Assembly: GCA_963841015.1 (NCBI GenBank)
Contig: CAWJAX010000005.1
Span: 533,855 to 597,854, forward strand
Length of the DNA: 64,000 nucleotides
Origin: an uncultured Methanoregulaceae archaeon
GTDB taxonomy: Archaea > Halobacteriota > Methanomicrobia > Methanomicrobiales > Methanospirillaceae
Reading direction: 5' to 3'
Positions 27,466-36,583 of the stretch are shown here, piece by piece; within the stretch, counting starts at the first letter, position 1; each line of letters begins with the position of its first letter. Position numbers and translations under genes: made by a program. The notes under the pieces were generated by a model. The model made no database searches, had not been told where the DNA came from, and saw only the letters and a program-made list of their open reading frames with translations.

Positions 27466-27729
27466 TTTTTTTCACGCACCAGCTATGATCGATTTCAAAA
27501 ATCGACTATCAAAAAGTGGTCGAAGAAGATAGATAAATGTTCTGAAATAAGCCCATAAAAAAGGGGAATTTATTCAGGATTTTTAATTTTTATAAATATA
27601 CTCTTGAATCATGTTAATTTAAAAAAATTTACTCAATTCGCCATTTTCCATGCGCTGTATAAACCGGATTAAATTAGAAAATTTATTCAATAAACATCAT
27701 TGTACCTTTGTAGTACCGGAGGTTATCAA

Positions 27730-28614
27730 ATGGAAATCAACGGAGTTACTATTGATAATACGTACGCAGAGGCATTCCCGACCTGGGTCTGCCGTGTAAT
27801 CATCACTGCGGTGACGAAGGAATGGGCAGAGAAAGCAGCAACGGAAGCAACCGGATTTGCAACATCGTCTATTGGCTGCCCATGCGAGGCAGGAATTGAA
27901 GGATTTGTGCCGGCAAGTGAGACTCCCGATGGAAGACCGGGTGTTGCCATCCTGATCTGTGCCAGCAAGAAGAAACTCAAGGAACAGGTCGTGGAACGCC
28001 TTGCAGAATGTGTCCTCACTGCACCTACCACAGCAGTTTTTAACGGGATCACCAATGCAGAGGAAAAAATCCCGGTCAAGCTTCACTTCTTTGGTGATGG
28101 CTACGAATACCAGAAAGAGGTAGGCGGGAGAAAGTGCTGGGCTATTCCCATTATGCAGGGTGAATACGTTGGCGAAGAGGAGTTTGGCATCGTCAAGGGT
28201 GTTGCCGGCGGAAACTTCTTTGTGATGGGTGAGAACCAGATGGCAGCTCTCATGGGAGCAAAAGCTGCAGTTGACGCGATTGACAGGGTGCCGGGCACTA
28301 TCACGAGTTTCCCGGGTGGTATTGTCGGGAGCGGTTCAAAAGTGGGCAGCCTGAAATACAAGTTCATGATTGCTTCGACCAATGAGAAGTACTGTCCGAC
28401 ACTCCGGGAAAAAGTTGCTGACACCAAGGTCCCGGCTGGAATCAAGGCAGTCTATGAGATTGTTATTGACGGGATTGATGAGAAGTCTGTTGCAGCGGCA
28501 ATGGGAGCCGGTGTCAGGGCAGCTGTCATGGTTCCGGGCGTGAAGTTCATCTCTGCTGGAAACTTTGGCGGTACTCTTGGACCATTTAAGATTGATCTGC
28601 ACAAAGTGCTCTGA
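27730..28614 (+). CDS. ftr: Formylmethanofuran:H4MPT formyltransferase
   Basis: MEINGVTIDNTYAEAF, TPDGRPG, GVAGGNF, SAGNFGG. Confidence 0.97.
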   Translation: MEINGVTIDNTYAEAFPTWVCRVIITAVTKEWAEKAATEATGFATSSIGCPCEAGIEGFVPASETPDGRPGVAILICASKKKLKEQVVERLAECVLTAPTTAVFNGITNAEEKIPVKLHFFGDGYEYQKEVGGRKCWAIPIMQGEYVGEEEFGIVKGVAGGNFFVMGENQMAALMGAKAAVDAIDRVPGTITSFPGGIVGSGSKVGSLKYKFMIASTNEKYCPTLREKVADTKVPAGIKAVYEIVIDGIDEKSVAAAMGAGVRAAVMVPGVKFISAGNFGGTLGPFKIDLHKVL

Positions 28615-28918
28615 AATTTTCTCTTTTTTTAATTTATTGCGATCACATCGATCGTTATTTATATTTTTATTGCCGATTCTTTTGTTAACGAAATTTTCGG
28701 CGATAACATGATCACCCTGACACACAAGGACGTGAATCCCCGATTCCGACCTCTTTTCAGCCCGATCTTTCGCCTGGGGGTTGGCGGATTCAATGGTACC
28801 TCAGCGATCATCGGACGATGCATTGCCCGAAGCACCAGTACAGCGGATATGATGAACCGATTGTGTACCTGGGATGGGGTAATACAGGAAATCAAAGGAA
28901 TTGAGATGGCTGGACACT

Positions 28919-29815
28919 ATGACGAACATCCCTGAACCGTATGTCATACACTACCCGCGGATTGTGGCAGTAGCTGATGAAGCAGGCAGTCATGTGGAGC
29001 TCATTGAGTTCTTTGACTGTGTTGGCGGGGCAATGTGGTCAAAGCACCACTATGCCCAAAGCCCGGTGGTAAAAAATGTCCGCTGTGTTGGCCAGACCAT
29101 GCGGTACCTCTTAACCACGGGTACCGTGGACCTTGCTCTTGAAGGATCCAGGTTTCCGGCCGGTATCTCCTCGTGCATTGTCGAAAAATCTGAGATCGCT
29201 GTCACCTACATCGGAATGGGTGGGGGCGGGGTAGGTGCAGCAGCATGCCGTTCTGATGCAGCTGGTGTCCTGCGGAGCAGGTGCGATGAATCCGGGGGTG
29301 GGAAAGTTGCCGGTTCCACGATATGGCTGCCCCGCATGCAGCGGGTTCTCATTGGTGTCGATGATACTGATACCCCTGACGAGGGAGCCACGTGGACGCT
29401 TGTCCATAATATTGCAAAAGCGGTTGAGGATGAGCATTCGGTATACCTCTCGCACACGATAGTCCAGCTCTTCCCGGTGCCGTACCGTACCAAGAACTGT
29501 GTGAGTCTTGTGGCAGAGTTCGCGACAACGGATACCAAGGGACTGACAGAAAGGTTCCGGCAACTCCTCGAACGGTACACTCTCTCCCAAAAAACGGGGA
29601 TGGCAGTCTATACCGGGTTTACACTCTCAGAAAAACTGCTTGAATACGGGCGAAATGTCAAACGGGGAGAGATTAAACCGGGAGTGCTCGGAGGCCTGGA
29701 TGACAAAAACCTGCAGATAATACTGGATGGCAGGGGCATAATCGGGGCGGTTGCCGCCATCCCTTTTTACACCCGGTACGAGGAGGCGCTGGAATTATGC
29801 AGTGGACGGACCTGA
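28919..29815 (+). CDS. mmp11: Methanogenesis marker protein 11 (TiaS-like/DUF1743 C-terminal domain)
   Basis: VELIEFFDC, Y.GMGGGGVGA, IGVDDTD...GATW, QLFPVPYRTKNC. Confidence 0.85.
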   Translation: MTNIPEPYVIHYPRIVAVADEAGSHVELIEFFDCVGGAMWSKHHYAQSPVVKNVRCVGQTMRYLLTTGTVDLALEGSRFPAGISSCIVEKSEIAVTYIGMGGGGVGAAACRSDAAGVLRSRCDESGGGKVAGSTIWLPRMQRVLIGVDDTDTPDEGATWTLVHNIAKAVEDEHSVYLSHTIVQLFPVPYRTKNCVSLVAEFATTDTKGLTERFRQLLERYTLSQKTGMAVYTGFTLSEKLLEYGRNVKRGEIKPGVLGGLDDKNLQIILDGRGIIGAVAAIPFYTRYEEALELCSGRT

Positions 29816-30766
29816 AAGCCCGGCTTCTGGCGGTTGGTCAGGCACACCTGACCGGTGAACCGGCAGAAAACTATATCGCCCGTTCAGCTGCAGGTACCCG
29901 GTGCCGGTGGCAGCGGTGCAGTTTTTTTTGCCATGGGAAGTCACCGGGTCAAGCTTGCGCTCAGCCCGGTAAGCAGTATCGAGATTGCACACCGTGGCAA
30001 CGGAACTGCCGATCTGTTCTTTGAAGGACAGAAAATCTCCGGACACCTGCTGGAACCCGGGTTCCATTGCCCTGATCAGGCTTTTATCACCGTGACCGGC
30101 AGCTGCATTTTTTCCTGCAGCTATTGTTCCGTCCCCCGGATCGGGGGAAAACGCAAGACCATCAAAGAGATCACAGCGATGGTGGAATCGGTACGTGACC
30201 ATATCCATGCAATCTCCATAACAAGCGGGGTCCTCACGAGCATTGAAGAAGAAGAGGCCTATGTTCTTGAAGTGGTAAAACACCTCGCTTCGTTTAACCT
30301 GCCTGTTGGTGTCTCCATCTACCCGACCACAACGACACCCGACCGGTTAAAGGAGCTGGGCGTGGCTGAGGTGAAATTCAATCTCGAAGCGGCAACCCCG
30401 GAACTGTTTTCTCAGATGTGCCCGGGTCTGGATTACGGGGTACTCTGGCAGGTACTGGATCGCTCGGTGAAGCTGTTCGGGAAAAACCGTGTCTTTTCCA
30501 ATGTCATCATAGGCCTGGGGGAGACTGATGCGGAGCTGGAAACCTGTATCCAGAAGCTGACAGCGCTCGGGGTGATTCCGGTTCTGCGCCCACTCAATCC
30601 GGTAGCCGGGCTTGCAGGCTCACCACGGCCATCTGCACAACGGCTGATGAAAATCTTTGCCATACATGCACGGGCTCTTGACCAGGCTGGTCTTGATCCA
30701 AAACTTGCAGTTACGATGTGCACGAATTGTGCAGGTTGTGATCTCGTGCCGGGGAGGGACCAATGA
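29797..30766 (+). CDS. Radical SAM protein, biotin-synthase-related (frameshift near 29896)
   Basis: CIFSCSYC; NVIIGLGETD; additional C-terminal CTNCAGC; N-terminus MQWTDLKARLL in another frame. Confidence 0.85.
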
Positions 30767-32034
30767 AAGGGGTTGACGTAATCACCCGGGCAATCCTTGC
30801 CTGCACCGACCGGCAGTATACCGTGCCGGGTTTTCCCATCACTGAGCTTGGTGAGCGGACAGGAGCGGAACTGGTGATCAACGAGAAGACTGCGCTGGAA
30901 TATGCACTCGGGGATTCCCTCTCTGGCAGGAGGGCCGCGGTTATCATCAAAAATGTCGGGGTGAACGCGTGTGCCGATCCCCTGCTCCAGGCAACAGCGC
31001 AGGGGCTCATAGGGGGGGTGATCCTTGTAGCCGGGGATGACCCGGAAGCAAAAGGTTCACAGACCTCCCAGGACTCACGCTACTTCGGGGAGCTTGCGGA
31101 ACTCCCGGTGATAGAACCGGATGAAACCACCTGTTATGCCGGTGTGGAGGCGGCGCTTGAAGCCTCCGAGGAGTTCTCCCGGGTAGCCATGCTCCGCCTG
31201 ACACCACAGATCCTGGAACAGGAGGTAACAGGTAATCCTGTTCCCCGGAATGACCGGCGAGGGAGGCTCTCCGACCGGACCTGGACTATGAACGGCAGGG
31301 TCACTGCAGCAGAGGAGCTGTACCGCACGATGTTTGCCTGGTCAGACCGGTCAGCCCTGAACCAGTGGAAGGGAGAACCCGCCGGTGTTGGTGCAGCAGA
31401 GGGGAATACCCGGATAGTGACCGTGAATCCTCTGCCGTTGCAGGCTGCCGGGATGCACAATGTGCATGAACAGGGCCGGACCTTTGTCCGTGACCACCGT
31501 GGTATCCAGCCACCGCTTCCCCAGAAACGCCCCCAGGCGATGGAGGACCGCGGATACTACCGCACATTCTGCACCTCATGCCCGTTTAAACCCTTCATGA
31601 ATATCGTAAAGGAACGGAACATGAAGATGATCTGCGATGCCGGGTGTTCCGTGCTGGGAATGAATCCGCCGTATGATCTGGGTGTGGCAAGTTATGGTAT
31701 GGGTGCGAGCATCGCGGTAGCCGCACGGAGTACGCAGGTTGCCCTTATCGGTGATTATGCCCTCCTGCACTCCGGTCTGAACGCACTCATCGATGTCTAT
31801 GAGAAGCGGCTCCCGCTGCTCTGCATAGTAATGAATAACAAATGCACCGCAATGACCGGCAAACAGCCGGCCTATAATCCTGTGCCCTATATCCGCTGGG
31901 CAGACCCGGTTATCTGCAGTGCCGATGACGAACCGATGCTGAAACAGGAGCTTGTGGTCACGGACAGGCCGCGAACGCTGGTGATTGAAGGGACCTGTCC
32001 GGGAGGAAGCAGCCATGAAACCGTGGAATATTGA
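30763..32034 (+). CDS. ThDP-dependent enzyme, truncated IorA-like
   Basis: TVPGFP, INEKTALEYA, AGDDP...SQ..QDSR, FCTSCP, GDYALLHSG...NN; no C-terminal ferredoxin domain. Confidence 0.85.
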   Translation: MKGVDVITRAILACTDRQYTVPGFPITELGERTGAELVINEKTALEYALGDSLSGRRAAVIIKNVGVNACADPLLQATAQGLIGGVILVAGDDPEAKGSQTSQDSRYFGELAELPVIEPDETTCYAGVEAALEASEEFSRVAMLRLTPQILEQEVTGNPVPRNDRRGRLSDRTWTMNGRVTAAEELYRTMFAWSDRSALNQWKGEPAGVGAAEGNTRIVTVNPLPLQAAGMHNVHEQGRTFVRDHRGIQPPLPQKRPQAMEDRGYYRTFCTSCPFKPFMNIVKERNMKMICDAGCSVLGMNPPYDLGVASYGMGASIAVAARSTQVALIGDYALLHSGLNALIDVYEKRLPLLCIVMNNKCTAMTGKQPAYNPVPYIRWADPVICSADDEPMLKQELVVTDRPRTLVIEGTCPGGSSHETVEY

Positions 32035-33143
32035 GATATGTGATGTAACGCTCAGAGACGGAGAACAGACACCGGGAGTATCATTTTCCTGTGAGGAAAA
32101 GGTGAGGATTGCCCGGATGCTGGATACCATCGGGATTGAGGTGATCGAGGCCGGGTTTCCTGCAGTATCCCCCCACGAAAAGGAGTGCGTAAAGGCCGTT
32201 GCGAACCTCGGGCTCGACTGCCCGTATCTGCGGGTTTGCACGCGCCCGGGAAGCAGATGTTGCAACAGCGATAGACTGCAATGTGGACATGGTAAGCATC
32301 TTTATCCCGACATCCGAGCTGCATGTCCGGCTCAAATTCAAAAAAACGCGGGAGCAGGTGCTTGACGATGCACTCGGGATTATTGATTATGCCACGGATC
32401 ACGGTGTTCAGGTGCGGTTTGCAGCCGAAGATGCGTCCCGGACGGATCTTCCCTTCTTAAAAGAGGTGTACCGTCGTGCGTCAGAGCACGGTGCAGTGCT
32501 GCTGAGCTTTGCCGACACCGTTGGCTGCCTGATCCCGACCGAAATGCAGCGGGTCATGACCGAACTGGTTGCATCGGTGGACAAACCGCTCTGTGCTCAC
32601 TGCCATAACGATATGGGCTGTGCGGTCGCAAATACGATTACCGCTGCAGAAGCCGGGGCTTTCCAGCTGCATACAACGGTAAACGGGATCGGGGAGCGGG
32701 CTGGCAATGCATCCCTGGAAGAAGTGCTTGTAGCCCTGCGGATGAAAGGGGGTATTGATCGGTACGATCTCTCACACCTGACGGAACTCTCCCACATGGT
32801 CGAAAAATTCTCCGGCATCACGCTCCCGAGGAACAAGCCCGTCACCGGCGAACTCGCGTTCTCGCACGAAAGTGGTATCCACATCGCGGCAATTCTTGAA
32901 GACCCGTCCTCGTACGAATACTTCCCGCCCGATATGGTCGGGAGCGAACGCAGGTTCATTCTCGGGAAACATACAGGTAAGAAAGCGCTTGAACATGTAG
33001 TGGCATCGATTGGCTGCGAACTTACCGAAAAACAGGTCTGCCGGGTTCTTGACCTTGTCAAGGACAAATCAGAGCATAAATGCAACATCACCCCGGATGT
33101 CTTAAAAAAACTGATCCGGAAAGCAAAAGAGGAGAATGCCTGA
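32015..33143 (+). CDS. aksA: Homocitrate synthase family (frameshift near 32218)
   Basis: DVTLRDGEQTPG, HCHNDMG, GIGERAGNA, HESGIH; no LeuA regulatory domain. Confidence 0.85.
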
Positions 33144-34357
33144 TGGGGACATTATCAGAAAGGATCCTTCACGGGACTGCGGGAGAGTATGTTGACCGGG
33201 CCATCGACCGGGCGTATGTCCATGACGGCACCGGGGTACTTACTCTTGAAGCCTGGAAGAGTATGGGAGAGCAGAGGATACAGGATGCGTCACATATTCA
33301 CGTCCTTTTCGATCATATCGTGCCGGCAAACAACAGCACAACTGCGACTCTCCAGCACGAGCTGCGTGAGTTCGCCCGCAGTTCGTTCCTGCATTTTTCT
33401 GATATCGGGAGTGGGATCTGTCACCAGATCATGAGCGAGGGGATAGTGCTCCCGGGTGAAGTCGTGGTCGGCGCTGATTCCCACAGCTGCACGCTCGGGG
33501 CCTTCGGTGCATTTGCCACGGGTGTCGGTGCAACGGATATGGCAGCGATCTGGATGACCGGGGAGACATGGTTCCGGGTTCCGGAATCAACAGGGATGCA
33601 CCTTTCCGGAACCTTTACTGGTGCCGCCGAGGCAAAAGACCTTGCACTTACCTATGTCAGCAAACTCGGTATGGACGGTGCCAGCTACCAGGCTCTGGAA
33701 TTTATTGGTGAAGGCACAGCTGCCCTGCCCATGGACGACCGGCTCACGCTCTGCAACCTTGCTGTTGAGACCGGTGCCAAGGCCGGAATGTTCTATGCAG
33801 ATGCTATAACCGTGCAGTATCTTGCAGCGGCAGGTCACACGGTAAAACCCCAGACGCCGGAGCCTTGCAGGTATATCCGGGAGCTGGATTTCGATCTTTC
33901 CGATATTGTCCCGGTCATTGCTGTGCCTCCAAGGGTGGACACCGTAAAACCCGTGCATGATCTCGCCGGGCTGCCGCTCGATCAGGTTTTTGTGGGTACC
34001 TGCACAAACGGCCGCTACACGGATCTTGCACGGTTCGCACGGGTTGTGAAAGGGAAAAATGTTGCAATCCGCACTATCATTGTTCCGGCTTCCCGTGCCG
34101 TGCTGCAGGAAGCACTCCGGACCGGGGTACTTGCTGATCTTGTGGCGGCCGGATGCACTATCGGAACCCCGGGCTGCGGTCCCTGCCTTGGAGCCCATAT
34201 GGGTGTACTGGGCGAAGGGGAGGTCTGCCTGTCAACAGCAAACCGCAACTTCAAAAACCGGATGGGTGTTGGCGGGGAGATTTTCCTGTCCTCCGTTGCC
34301 ACGGCCGCAGCCAGTGCACTTGAAGGAGAAATAACCGAGCCGGAGGCGGGCCCATGA
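33143..34357 (+). CDS. aksD: Homoaconitase large subunit
   Basis: HDGT, GICHQ, GADSH, GTCTNGR, CGPCLG, NRNFKNRMG. Confidence 0.85.
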   Translation: MGTLSERILHGTAGEYVDRAIDRAYVHDGTGVLTLEAWKSMGEQRIQDASHIHVLFDHIVPANNSTTATLQHELREFARSSFLHFSDIGSGICHQIMSEGIVLPGEVVVGADSHSCTLGAFGAFATGVGATDMAAIWMTGETWFRVPESTGMHLSGTFTGAAEAKDLALTYVSKLGMDGASYQALEFIGEGTAALPMDDRLTLCNLAVETGAKAGMFYADAITVQYLAAAGHTVKPQTPEPCRYIRELDFDLSDIVPVIAVPPRVDTVKPVHDLAGLPLDQVFVGTCTNGRYTDLARFARVVKGKNVAIRTIIVPASRAVLQEALRTGVLADLVAAGCTIGTPGCGPCLGAHMGVLGEGEVCLSTANRNFKNRMGVGGEIFLSSVATAAASALEGEITEPEAGP

Positions 34358-34824
34358 TGGGAAAAGGGCGGGCTGTCTGCGTCGGTGCAGATATTGACAC
34401 GGATCTTGTAATCGCCGGGCGCTACCTGCGGACAAAGGATCATAGTCTCTGGGTTGCACACGTGTTCGAAGATCTCGATCCAACGCTCGCCAGCCGCCTG
34501 AACGGTGCCGTGATCGTGGCAGGAAAAAATTTTGGCTGCGGTTCCTCCCGGGAACAGGCAGCGATTGCCATCCATGAGGCCGGCGTGGTTGCCGTGGTGG
34601 CACCATCCTTTGCCCGGATATTTTTCCGGAATGCAATCAATGTCGGGCTCCCGCTTATTGAATGTAATCTCTTCTGCACAGAGGGAAGTCTCGTGACGTT
34701 CGACCTTGCAGAAGGATGGGTTGAGGCAGAGGGTAAGAAGTATACCACCTGCCCGCTCTCTCCACGGATGCAGGAGATCCTTGCAGCGGGCGGCCTCGTC
34801 AACTACTGGAGGTCCGGCAGATGA
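34354..34824 (+). CDS. aksE: Homoaconitase small subunit
   Basis: IDTD...YLRT loop typical of homoaconitase; GKNFGCGSSREQA. Confidence 0.85.
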   Translation: MMGKGRAVCVGADIDTDLVIAGRYLRTKDHSLWVAHVFEDLDPTLASRLNGAVIVAGKNFGCGSSREQAAIAIHEAGVVAVVAPSFARIFFRNAINVGLPLIECNLFCTEGSLVTFDLAEGWVEAEGKKYTTCPLSPRMQEILAAGGLVNYWRSGR

Positions 34825-35621
34825 TCTTTCCGGAACAGTGCAAGCAGGTCGGGTATGCTGCAACAAAACCCTGCGGTGACAAGGTCTATTTCCTGAGCCG
34901 CTACCTGGTGCGGGACACGGGTGACGGGTATGAGCTGCTCGAAATCACGCTTGATTCTGCAGGGAAAGGTCTGATGCGTACAATTGTGGCGTCCAACGTG
35001 GTCGCAACTGCAAAGGAAACGTACCGTTACCCCGAAAAAGTGCAGATCCATGACCGCACGCGACTTATCAGGCTTGCACGGGATACGGGCTTTCGCTGCA
35101 CGATCTTTACCGGGCTTGACGAACATATGACGTTCGTGCTTGACCCTGATATCTCCGGGCTGCTTGAGATCCATGTTTATGATGTAGCGCCTCCCCGCCC
35201 GAGTCTCTCTTCCTGTATCCGGGAGCTGGAGTCTGACGGGCTCTTTGGGGATCTTTCGGTCACGTTCTGCCACCATACCCGCGATATCACGCAGGTCCAG
35301 GCGGATGTCTACCCCTGTCGTGCCGCAGGGTATACCCGTACGCTCGATGCCGACCCGATGCAGGGGGGGGAACGGGTAGCCGGGTGCCAGACAGGTTCAC
35401 AGTTCTACACCGAATGCTACGGGAAGGACTTTGCGCTTGAGAATATCTGCCCGCTGGAATCCGTGCAGGAGGAACCGTTCATAGCCCGTTGTTGTCGCTC
35501 CGAACGTGCAGGTACAGGGATCTCTAAAGGGAAGTTTGGAGCCGTAGTCCACTGGGGTGCAAATCCGGCACAGATCGCCCGTGCGGTGAATGATCTGGCA
35601 GTGGAGTGGAGGAAGCAATGA
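34821..35621 (+). CDS. Cys-rich protein of unknown function
   Basis: 266 aa, ATGA overlaps with both neighbours; YPC, GC, ICP and RCCR motifs. Confidence 0.85.
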   Translation: MIFPEQCKQVGYAATKPCGDKVYFLSRYLVRDTGDGYELLEITLDSAGKGLMRTIVASNVVATAKETYRYPEKVQIHDRTRLIRLARDTGFRCTIFTGLDEHMTFVLDPDISGLLEIHVYDVAPPRPSLSSCIRELESDGLFGDLSVTFCHHTRDITQVQADVYPCRAAGYTRTLDADPMQGGERVAGCQTGSQFYTECYGKDFALENICPLESVQEEPFIARCCRSERAGTGISKGKFGAVVHWGANPAQIARAVNDLAVEWRKQ

Positions 35622-36583
35622 CCCGGATCGCGATTGTTGAAGGTGATGGTATCGGCCATGAGGTGATCCCGGTTGCACAACAGGCTCTTGAACTGCTCCA
35701 TCCCGAATACGAATTCTTCGCAGTTGATGTCGGGTACCACCGCTGGGAACAGACCGGATGCCCGTGTGCAGATCACGATATTGCGGAACTGAAGACCGCA
35801 GATGCAATCCTCTTTGGTGCGATCACGACACCCCCGATGAAGGATTACCAGAGCGTAGTGCTGCGGCTGAGAAAAGCGCTCGATCTCTACGCAAACCTGC
35901 GGCCGGTCAAAGGGAACGGGTTCGATATCATGATCGTGCGGGAAAATACCGAAGGACTCTATTCCGGTATCGAACAGGTCAGCAATGACCGGGCAACAAC
36001 CCTCCGGGTGGTGTCCCGGCGGGGTACTGAGCGGATCGTGCGTGCTGCAATCCGGCTCGCACTACGGCGGAGCGGCAGGCTGACTATCGGACATAAGGCA
36101 AATGTGCTCAAATCCGATGTATTGTTCCGTGACATCTGCCTTGCCGAAGCGAAAGCAGCGGGTGTTTCCTGCAATGACAAATACATCGACGCTCTCGCGC
36201 TGGACATCCTCCAGCATCCCGCGTCGTATGATGTCGTTGTCACGACGAACATTTTCGGGGACATCCTTTCAGACGTGGCTTCGTATCTTGTCGGGGGACT
36301 GGGGCTGGTGCCCAGTGCCAATATCGGTGACCACCATGCCCTTTTTGAACCTGTGCATGGGAGTGCCCCGGATATTGCCGGCAAAAATATCGCCAACCCG
36401 ATCGCTGCCCTGCGGAGTGCAGGCATGCTCCTTACCTATTGTAATGATCCATCAGGATCAGGGAGGATCGAAGAAGCAATACAGGAAGTACTTGCAGAAG
36501 GCATCCGGACCCGGGATCTTGGTGGTTCAGCCGGGACCCGTGAGTTCGGGAATGCGGTGCTCCGCAGGCTCCAAAAAATATAA
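35618..36583 (+). CDS. aksF: Homoisocitrate/isopropylmalate-family dehydrogenase
   Basis: GDGIGHEV, RENTEGLY, HKANVLK, NIFGDILSD, EPVHGSAPDIAG. Confidence 0.85.
   Translation: MTRIAIVEGDGIGHEVIPVAQQALELLHPEYEFFAVDVGYHRWEQTGCPCADHDIAELKTADAILFGAITTPPMKDYQSVVLRLRKALDLYANLRPVKGNGFDIMIVRENTEGLYSGIEQVSNDRATTLRVVSRRGTERIVRAAIRLALRRSGRLTIGHKANVLKSDVLFRDICLAEAKAAGVSCNDKYIDALALDILQHPASYDVVVTTNIFGDILSDVASYLVGGLGLVPSANIGDHHALFEPVHGSAPDIAGKNIANPIAALRSAGMLLTYCNDPSGSGRIEEAIQEVLAEGIRTRDLGGSAGTREFGNAVLRRLQKI

Follow-up and report, generated by a model that had tools for sequence, protein, structure and literature searches.

The 64,000-nucleotide stretch of DNA analysed here (the window; contig CAWJAX010000005.1 of an uncultured Methanoregulaceae archaeon) carries at 28919–29815 on the forward strand the mmp11 gene, which encodes methanogenesis marker protein 11 (Mmp11). 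As judged from a predicted structure and from family profiles, the C-terminal half of this protein is a kinase domain of the type found in TiaS, the tRNA(Ile2) 2-agmatinylcytidine synthetase. The catalytic motif of TiaS is conserved in Mmp11, the RNA-binding parts of TiaS are missing, and the gene is linked to aks-type genes of coenzyme B biosynthesis. From these features we infer a substrate, a step and a use of ATP: with a confidence that falls a little short of even, Mmp11 is read here as a putative ATP-dependent enzyme that would O-phosphorylate a small molecule in the late part of coenzyme B synthesis.

The gene is contained in an open reading frame at 28901–29815 (+), and the ATG at 28919 gives a protein of 298 amino acids, the commonest length among close homologues. 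The match to TIGR03280 (methan_mark_11) scores 344.5 bits at a cut-off of 255.8 and is full-length (residues 11–292 on model positions 1–291 of 292), which bears out the marker assignment made in an initial annotation of this DNA. Two Pfam families also match the protein, TiaS_TCKD with 46.4 bits (cut-off 27) and TiaS_FLD with 28.9 bits (cut-off 21). At E≤1e-5 Mmp11 has 1645 homologues, the best 120 of which share 80–92% identity, come from Methanoregula-type sources and are mostly labelled "methanogenesis (imperfect) marker protein 11"; the best 80 of the 594 loci found with the family alignment in a search for related loci are likewise all of Methanoregula type. The family is small, with 157 matches at E≤0.001 among 1.84 billion representative proteins. 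One Mmp11-like protein cluster (P0140, 174 bits to the query) bears source names from an Undinarchaeales metagenome-assembled genome, a lineage that is not known to metabolise methane. The initial annotation gave Mmp11 no known function, and the literature agrees: among the matches listed in searches on Mmp11, TIGR03280, coenzyme B biosynthesis and TiaS, supplementary files being outside their scope, none assigns a function to Mmp11.

Structure prediction from the single sequence was unusable, with a predicted local distance difference test (pLDDT) of 32.6. The AlphaFold model calculated from a 39-row alignment has a pLDDT of 93.7 and a predicted template modelling score of 0.92, and consists of two domains. 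Residues 140–298 (29336–29815, +) are assigned to a TiaS-type kinase domain (TCKD) together with a ferredoxin-like domain by VIA-align, Foldseek and the family profile. In the exhaustive VIA-align comparison with 48,161 chains, 3amt_A is ranked first (Z 19.7, root-mean-square deviation 2.2 Å over 154 residues, model residues 140–296 on chain residues 0–253), 3u02_A second (Z 15.0), and the following row has a Z of 6.7. Foldseek gives nine matches at E≤1e-3, every one a TiaS entry and again headed by 3amt_A (E 1.9e-7, 150 columns, root-mean-square deviation 2.6 Å, 22% identity). The Mmp11 family profile finds TiaS sequences in the PDB at E 1e-14 to 1e-24, a likeness seen with the profile only, as a single-sequence phmmer search of Mmp11 against the PDB found no TiaS. 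For the ferredoxin-like part there is also a similarity to ACT- and PII-like folds (Z ~6). As the protein ends at residue 298, which corresponds to the end of the ferredoxin-like domain of TiaS, it has neither an OB fold nor a zinc ribbon. A structural comparison with TiaS had been named in the initial annotation as a check on its proposal; it supports a TiaS-type kinase domain in the C-terminal half, with the Asp motif and the equivalent of Thr18 kept.

The three motifs pointed out in the initial annotation can be read directly from the sequence at the places given there, and they are conserved in the family. IGVDDTD (residues 145–151; 29351–29371, +) aligns with VGIDDTD of TiaS. GAT follows at residues 156–158 (29384–29392, +), with T158 placed by the hidden Markov model alignment on the first Thr of the "CTTY" of TiaS. 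The Gly-rich loop GMGGGGVG (residues 99–106; 29213–29236, +) lies between strand 92–100 and helix 102–112 of the model. In the numbering of TiaS, DDTD comprises the metal-binding residues Asp8, Asp9 and Asp11, and the counterpart of T158 is presumably Thr18, the residue that becomes autophosphorylated. T150, T158, G273 and G276 are found in every one of 39 full-length family members, paralogues included, and conservation among these reaches at least 90% for D148, D149, D151, G156, A157, T191, N193, G99 and G102; in sets of 25 and 16 orthologues G99 and G102 are invariant as well. Such conservation across the family means that the motifs are not due to chance.

The N-terminal domain (residues 1–139; 28919–29335, +) is specific to the family and forms a separate domain in the model, with a pLDDT mostly above 90. 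None of 16 orthologue segments covering residues 1–139 matches a Pfam family, a profile of these residues finds nothing below E 1 among PDB sequences, and a protein atlas search with the domain returns the family's own clusters only, with scores of at most 0.79. Residues Y12, E30, C34, G37, W40, H44, G58, G68, L72, L74, G82, Y97, G99, G102, G104 and R111 are invariant in the 16 orthologues, the segments of which come from different families; the last four belong to the Gly-rich loop and the helix behind it. The arrangement of this loop in the model is typical of anion binding and suggests a phosphate- or anion-binding role.

The gene context points to metabolism. The order mmp11, radical SAM gene, gene of an IOR-alpha-like thiamine pyrophosphate (TPP) protein, aksA, hacA, hacB, DUF7714 gene and aksF is kept in 12 of 12 loci from six Methanomicrobiales families, with ftr on the 5' side of the block in 11 of them. 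In the window all genes from mmp11 to aksF are tightly packed or overlapping. That mmp11 heads the aks operon, as had been stated in the initial annotation, is correct for this genome, where a gap of 304 nucleotides precedes it and the genes on its 3' side overlap or abut; it does not extend to the relatives, as a paralogue precedes mmp11 in 11 of the 12 related loci. Twenty loci of the phylum come from other families (one of them with a match under the cut-off); in these the immediate neighbour of mmp11 is the TPP gene in eight, the radical SAM gene in seven and neither of these in five. In families f10 and f14 (f-numbers denote families in a sample of 301 genomes of one phylum, each at least 80% complete) seven loci were picked for the proximity of their TPP and DUF7714 matches. 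In each of them the TPP gene abuts aksA/hacA/hacB/aksF/DUF7714, with the aksA beside it divergently transcribed; mmp11 joins them in three and the radical SAM gene in one. The resulting network comprises the links Mmp11–TPP–aks and Mmp11–radical SAM in several families, the relatives being non-independent samples.

The radical SAM gene (29797–30766, +; ATG at 29797; Pfam Radical_SAM) overlaps the stop codon of mmp11; the overlap is 19 nucleotides in the window and 4 in related locus L013. The intact orthologue of that locus has 321 amino acids with the CxxxCxxC motif of the SAM cluster and an invariant C-terminal CxxCxxC, and shows a weak likeness, under the cut-off in every case, to LipS2, BioB and LipA. 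When a complex of Mmp11 and the radical SAM protein was predicted, the ipSAE was 0.00 in two runs made without controls, a value that says nothing either way on binding. The TPP protein (30763–32034, +; 423 amino acids; TPP_enzyme_C; IOR_alpha 156 bits, cut-off 651) is a shortened relative of IorA in which C270, C273, C295 and C412 are invariant among 12 orthologues. Its profile also draws ordinary IorA at ~300 bits, so that plain tallies of its matches do not show presence or absence, and only matches above ~500 bits were taken as orthologues. It is a reasonable candidate for the 2-oxosuberate decarboxylase. It is followed by the aksA-type homocitrate/isopropylmalate synthase (31985–33143, +; HMGL-like and HCS_D2 in two frames) and by the aksD/aksE-type homoaconitase, with its large subunit hacA (33080–34357, +; Aconitase; hacA_fam over cut-off) and small subunit hacB (34354–34824, +; Aconitase_C; LEUD_arch over cut-off). 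The block ends with the distantly XcbA-like DUF7714 (34821–35621, +; PF24830 303 bits; NCBIfam XcbA_fam 59 bits, cut-off 150) and the aksF-type homoisocitrate/isopropylmalate dehydrogenase (35606–36583, +; Iso_dh 307 bits; AksF2_Meth 327 bits, cut-off 540). The naming of these genes as aks is based on the two subfamily matches over cut-off, on gene order and on the YLRT motif in the small subunit HacB, a homoaconitase signature. XcbA itself carries a [2Fe-2S] cluster and, in bacteria, forms coenzyme M by reducing a thioaldehyde (PMC9457059).

The reading that we favour would place Mmp11 after the Aks enzymes have produced 2-oxosuberate. Its C-terminal domain would bind ATP and Mg and move a phosphoryl group onto an oxygen of the substrate, and its N-terminal domain with the Gly-rich strand-loop-helix would hold the small molecule, a part that in TiaS is taken by the tRNA-binding domains. 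Since the cluster offers candidates for decarboxylation (the TPP enzyme) and for thioaldehyde reduction (the XcbA-like protein), it is the ATP-dependent steps that are left for Mmp11. It may phosphorylate the carboxylate of 7-mercaptoheptanoate, with the amine of threonine then displacing the phosphate to give the amide; alternatively, it may phosphorylate the threonine hydroxyl of 7-mercaptoheptanoylthreonine. The present data do not tell the amide-forming step from phosphorylation of the hydroxyl. The initial annotation had proposed the former, as a coupling of 7-mercaptoheptanoate to threonine or phosphothreonine by TiaS-like chemistry. Its TiaS premise and the link to coenzyme B, here by gene order, are supported, and the coupling itself has alternatives that fit the data equally well, namely phosphorylation of 7-mercaptoheptanoylthreonine and an ATP-dependent activation for sulfur incorporation.

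A number of observations weigh against a role in coenzyme B synthesis, among them the phyletic pattern. Over the 301 genomes, Mmp11 over the cut-off is present in 146, McrA (E≤1e-30) in 180, DUF7714 in 130 and the radical SAM protein in 201. Mmp11 co-occurs with McrA in Methanomicrobiales, f7, f10, f14, f23, f27 and f29. In f15, by contrast, 35 of 42 genomes have McrA and all 42 the radical SAM gene, whereas Mmp11 is seen in a single one with a score under the cut-off (233.7 bits). It is also absent from f12 (McrA 4/4, Mmp11 0/4) and f28 (McrA 2/2, Mmp11 0/2), and f20 has an Mmp11 match at E ~1e-39 only. Conversely, ten genomes without McrA (eight of f8, one each of f17 and f30) contain Mmp11 over the cut-off together with the radical SAM gene; of five such genomes tested for dsrA, one has it. 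TIGR03280 is described as a family of methanogens only, to which these ten genomes do not conform; the window's own genome has McrA. DUF7714 and true TPP orthologues are confined to Methanomicrobiales, f7, f10, f14, f23, f27, f29 and f33, and the control genome of Methanocaldococcus jannaschii has Mmp11 and no DUF7714. The parts of the pathway thus form a mosaic across families, and any reading in terms of coenzyme B has to assume non-orthologous replacement; it is possible that an unrelated enzyme replaces Mmp11 in f15, f12 and f28. Gene order and gene identity count on the same side. The aks linkage of Mmp11 is limited to Methanomicrobiales and f14 and elsewhere runs indirectly via the TPP gene; other neighbours of mmp11 are ycaO-tfuA (L111, L112, L124), mcrB of the mcr operon (L126) and a PTA_PTB/MtxX-like gene (L115, L120); and the aks genes of the window score under the NCBIfam equivalog cut-offs for Aks and Hac.

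To these points is added the context of the radical SAM gene, which suits a role in sulfur incorporation equally well. In McrA-bearing lineages without Mmp11, 9 of 16 loci (L127, L128, L132, L133, L135–L139) have a COG1900 sulfurtransferase gene with HcyBio and CBS domains next to the radical SAM gene or in its vicinity, an assignment confirmed by Pfam for three of the nine and made by clustering for the others. COG1900 proteins turn aldehydes into thiols, and a part in coenzyme B synthesis has been proposed for them (PMC12068725). Mmp11 and the radical SAM enzyme might accordingly act together, the former phosphorylating the oxygen of 7-oxoheptanoate (or of a thiohemiacetal, or of the carboxyl), which sulfur would then replace, and the resulting thioaldehyde being reduced by the XcbA-like DUF7714 to 7-mercaptoheptanoate. 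The overlap of the two genes and their adjacency in 12 of 12 Methanomicrobiales loci and in 7 of the 20 from other families would agree with such a partnership, as would the second invariant CxxCxxC of the radical SAM protein and its sub-cut-off likeness to LipS2, BioB and LipA, which insert sulfur. The distant likeness of DUF7714 to XcbA, a thioaldehyde reductase (PMC9457059), fits as well. The logic would be that of TiaS, O-phosphorylation of the substrate followed by nucleophilic substitution. We nevertheless hold this to be improbable: we found no precedent for an aldehyde reacting in this way, both ATP-dependent late steps would be left without a candidate in the cluster, and the COG1900 gene may be a housekeeping homocysteine enzyme. 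A COG1900 gene is also present elsewhere in this genome and in five of five Mmp11-bearing f8, f17 and f30 genomes examined. The Mmp11–radical SAM pair might also serve another process of archaea with methane- or Wood-Ljungdahl-type metabolism, such as maturation of methyl-coenzyme M reductase (MCR) or synthesis of another cofactor, with the place in the aks operon being secondary. The neighbours ycaO-tfuA, mcr operon and PTA_PTB/MtxX-like gene, the ten genomes with Mmp11 and no McrA, the absence of Mmp11 from most McrA-bearing f15, f12 and f28 genomes and the much wider spread of the radical SAM gene can all be cited for it. The same ten genomes are, however, not explained by an MCR-specific role, the TPP gene, a direct neighbour of mmp11 in 8 of 20 loci, has its own linkage to aks genes in f10 and f14, and the Methanomicrobiales linkage holds in 12 of 12 loci across six families; we regard this explanation, too, as unlikely.

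Two further roles, that of an RNA-modifying enzyme and that of a non-catalytic protein, are unlikely, and to each we give very little credence. As a TiaS paralogue Mmp11 could modify tRNA or another RNA, for which the common kinase domain and catalytic motif speak. It lacks, however, the OB fold and the zinc ribbon, aligns with its 298 residues to TiaS chain residues 0–253 only, and does not match the NCBIfam model of TiaS (NF040849, cut-off 600 bits) at E≤0.01, and its neighbours are metabolic. The same genome contains a separate TiaS-like open reading frame of 407 amino acids (396 bits, cut-off 600), and since this covers the whole TiaS model (positions 4–415 of 422), Mmp11 is not the agmatidine synthetase of the cell. 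A scaffold or sensor in which only the TiaS fold has been kept would be in line with the resemblance of the ferredoxin-like part to ACT- and PII-like folds at Z ~6. DDxD, T158, KTxN and GxxGxIGA are, however, invariant or nearly so in the 39 sequences, and this speaks in favour of a functional active site.

A more far-reaching form of the coenzyme B reading takes the paralogues into account. Paralogue A (210 bits on TIGR03280) stands directly 5' of mmp11 in 11 of the 12 Methanomicrobiales loci (for example L013:10857–11813) and is absent beside mmp11 in the window. Paralogue B (104 bits on TIGR03280) lies directly 3' of an ACT-domain gene and the homoserine dehydrogenase gene in 13 of 13 relatives and in this genome (L025:8462–9427), a position that links the Mmp11 family to hydroxy-amino-acid metabolism. 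Paralogue B might be the missing homoserine kinase, as no thrB over the cut-off was found in this genome; an ApgM-like "proposed homoserine kinase" is, however, present there in split form. It is possible, if rather doubtful as a whole, that the TiaS kinase fold was recruited to small-molecule chemistry and that the cluster represents the complete other half of coenzyme B synthesis. Mmp11, with the paralogue where present, would join 7-mercaptoheptanoate to threonine and/or phosphorylate the product. Decarboxylation of 2-oxosuberate would fall to the TPP protein, delivery of sulfur to the radical SAM and/or COG1900 protein and thioaldehyde reduction to DUF7714; a related kinase, paralogue B, would belong to the homoserine/threonine branch.

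On its 5' side mmp11 is preceded by hdrACB and a polyferredoxin gene on the minus strand and then by ftr (27700–28614, +). The intergenic gap between ftr and mmp11 (28615–28918, 304 nucleotides, no strand assigned) is AT-rich, has a TATA-like TTTATATT near 28660 and is likely to contain a promoter and a leader. It has no open reading frame of at least 80 amino acids on the plus strand, and a search of 28550–28960 against Rfam gave no match. Contigs of RNA libraries cover parts of mmp11; such contigs cannot show transcription and were not counted as evidence of expression.

The radical SAM gene (at 29890–29900) and aksA (at 32215–32222) each contain one frame change in the window, and both have a single frame in relatives. 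One letter is missing at 29895 from every contig of the three public runs X1, X15 and X16 that spans this position, and at 32218–32220 from all contigs in some runs and from part of them in others. The extra bases near 29895 and at 32218–32220 are most likely insertion errors of the assembly. McrA and the ApgM-like gene are also split in the same assembly. The neighbour of the radical SAM gene in f20 is a CofD-like gene of the 2-phospho-L-lactate transferase family (L129:6964–7986, L140:9071–9979).

Coenzyme B is required at every turnover of methyl-coenzyme M reductase. For decades no enzymes have been known for the route from 2-oxosuberate to 7-mercaptoheptanoylthreonine phosphate. The analysis offers a small conserved set of candidate genes for the late part of this synthesis, namely those of Mmp11, the radical SAM enzyme, the IOR-alpha-like TPP protein and the XcbA-like protein. 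New are the architecture and the gene context in which this TiaS-type kinase domain stands, together with a specific proposed role. If this role is true, a gap in the biochemistry of methanogens would be closed, new targets for inhibitors of methane formation would become available, and the fold of a tRNA-modifying kinase would prove to have been reused in cofactor synthesis. A publication of 2025 still describes the late pathway as unknown (PMC12068725).

Among systems of known structure, TiaS (PDB 3amt, 3amu, 3au7, 4rvz and 5xob) has the TCKD and ferredoxin-like domains in common with Mmp11, along with GxDDTD, the Thr aligned to Thr18, KTxN and GRGxIGAxAA, at an identity of 18–23%. In contrast to Mmp11, it has the OB fold and the zinc ribbon that hold tRNA(Ile2); Mmp11 has an additional N-terminal domain of 139 residues and, unlike TiaS, a metabolic gene context, with the TiaS-like gene standing separately in the same genome. 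The closest match of the family profile is a short TiaS-like protein of Pyrococcus furiosus from structural genomics (PDB 3u02, 252 amino acids, E 1.3e-24), which is also without the tRNA-binding domains; it differs from Mmp11 in having no N-terminal domain of this type, and no function was found for it here. Paralogues A and B share with Mmp11 the two-domain layout and the DDTD and GAT motifs, both scoring under the family cut-off, and the context of paralogue B is of amino-acid type, unlike that of Mmp11. A similar logic is presumably followed by the ATP-dependent carbonyl O-phosphorylation of YcaO enzymes, in which ATP activates the oxygen before a nucleophile replaces it. YcaO is unrelated to Mmp11 in fold and family, and ycaO-tfuA stands beside mmp11 in three of the sampled loci.

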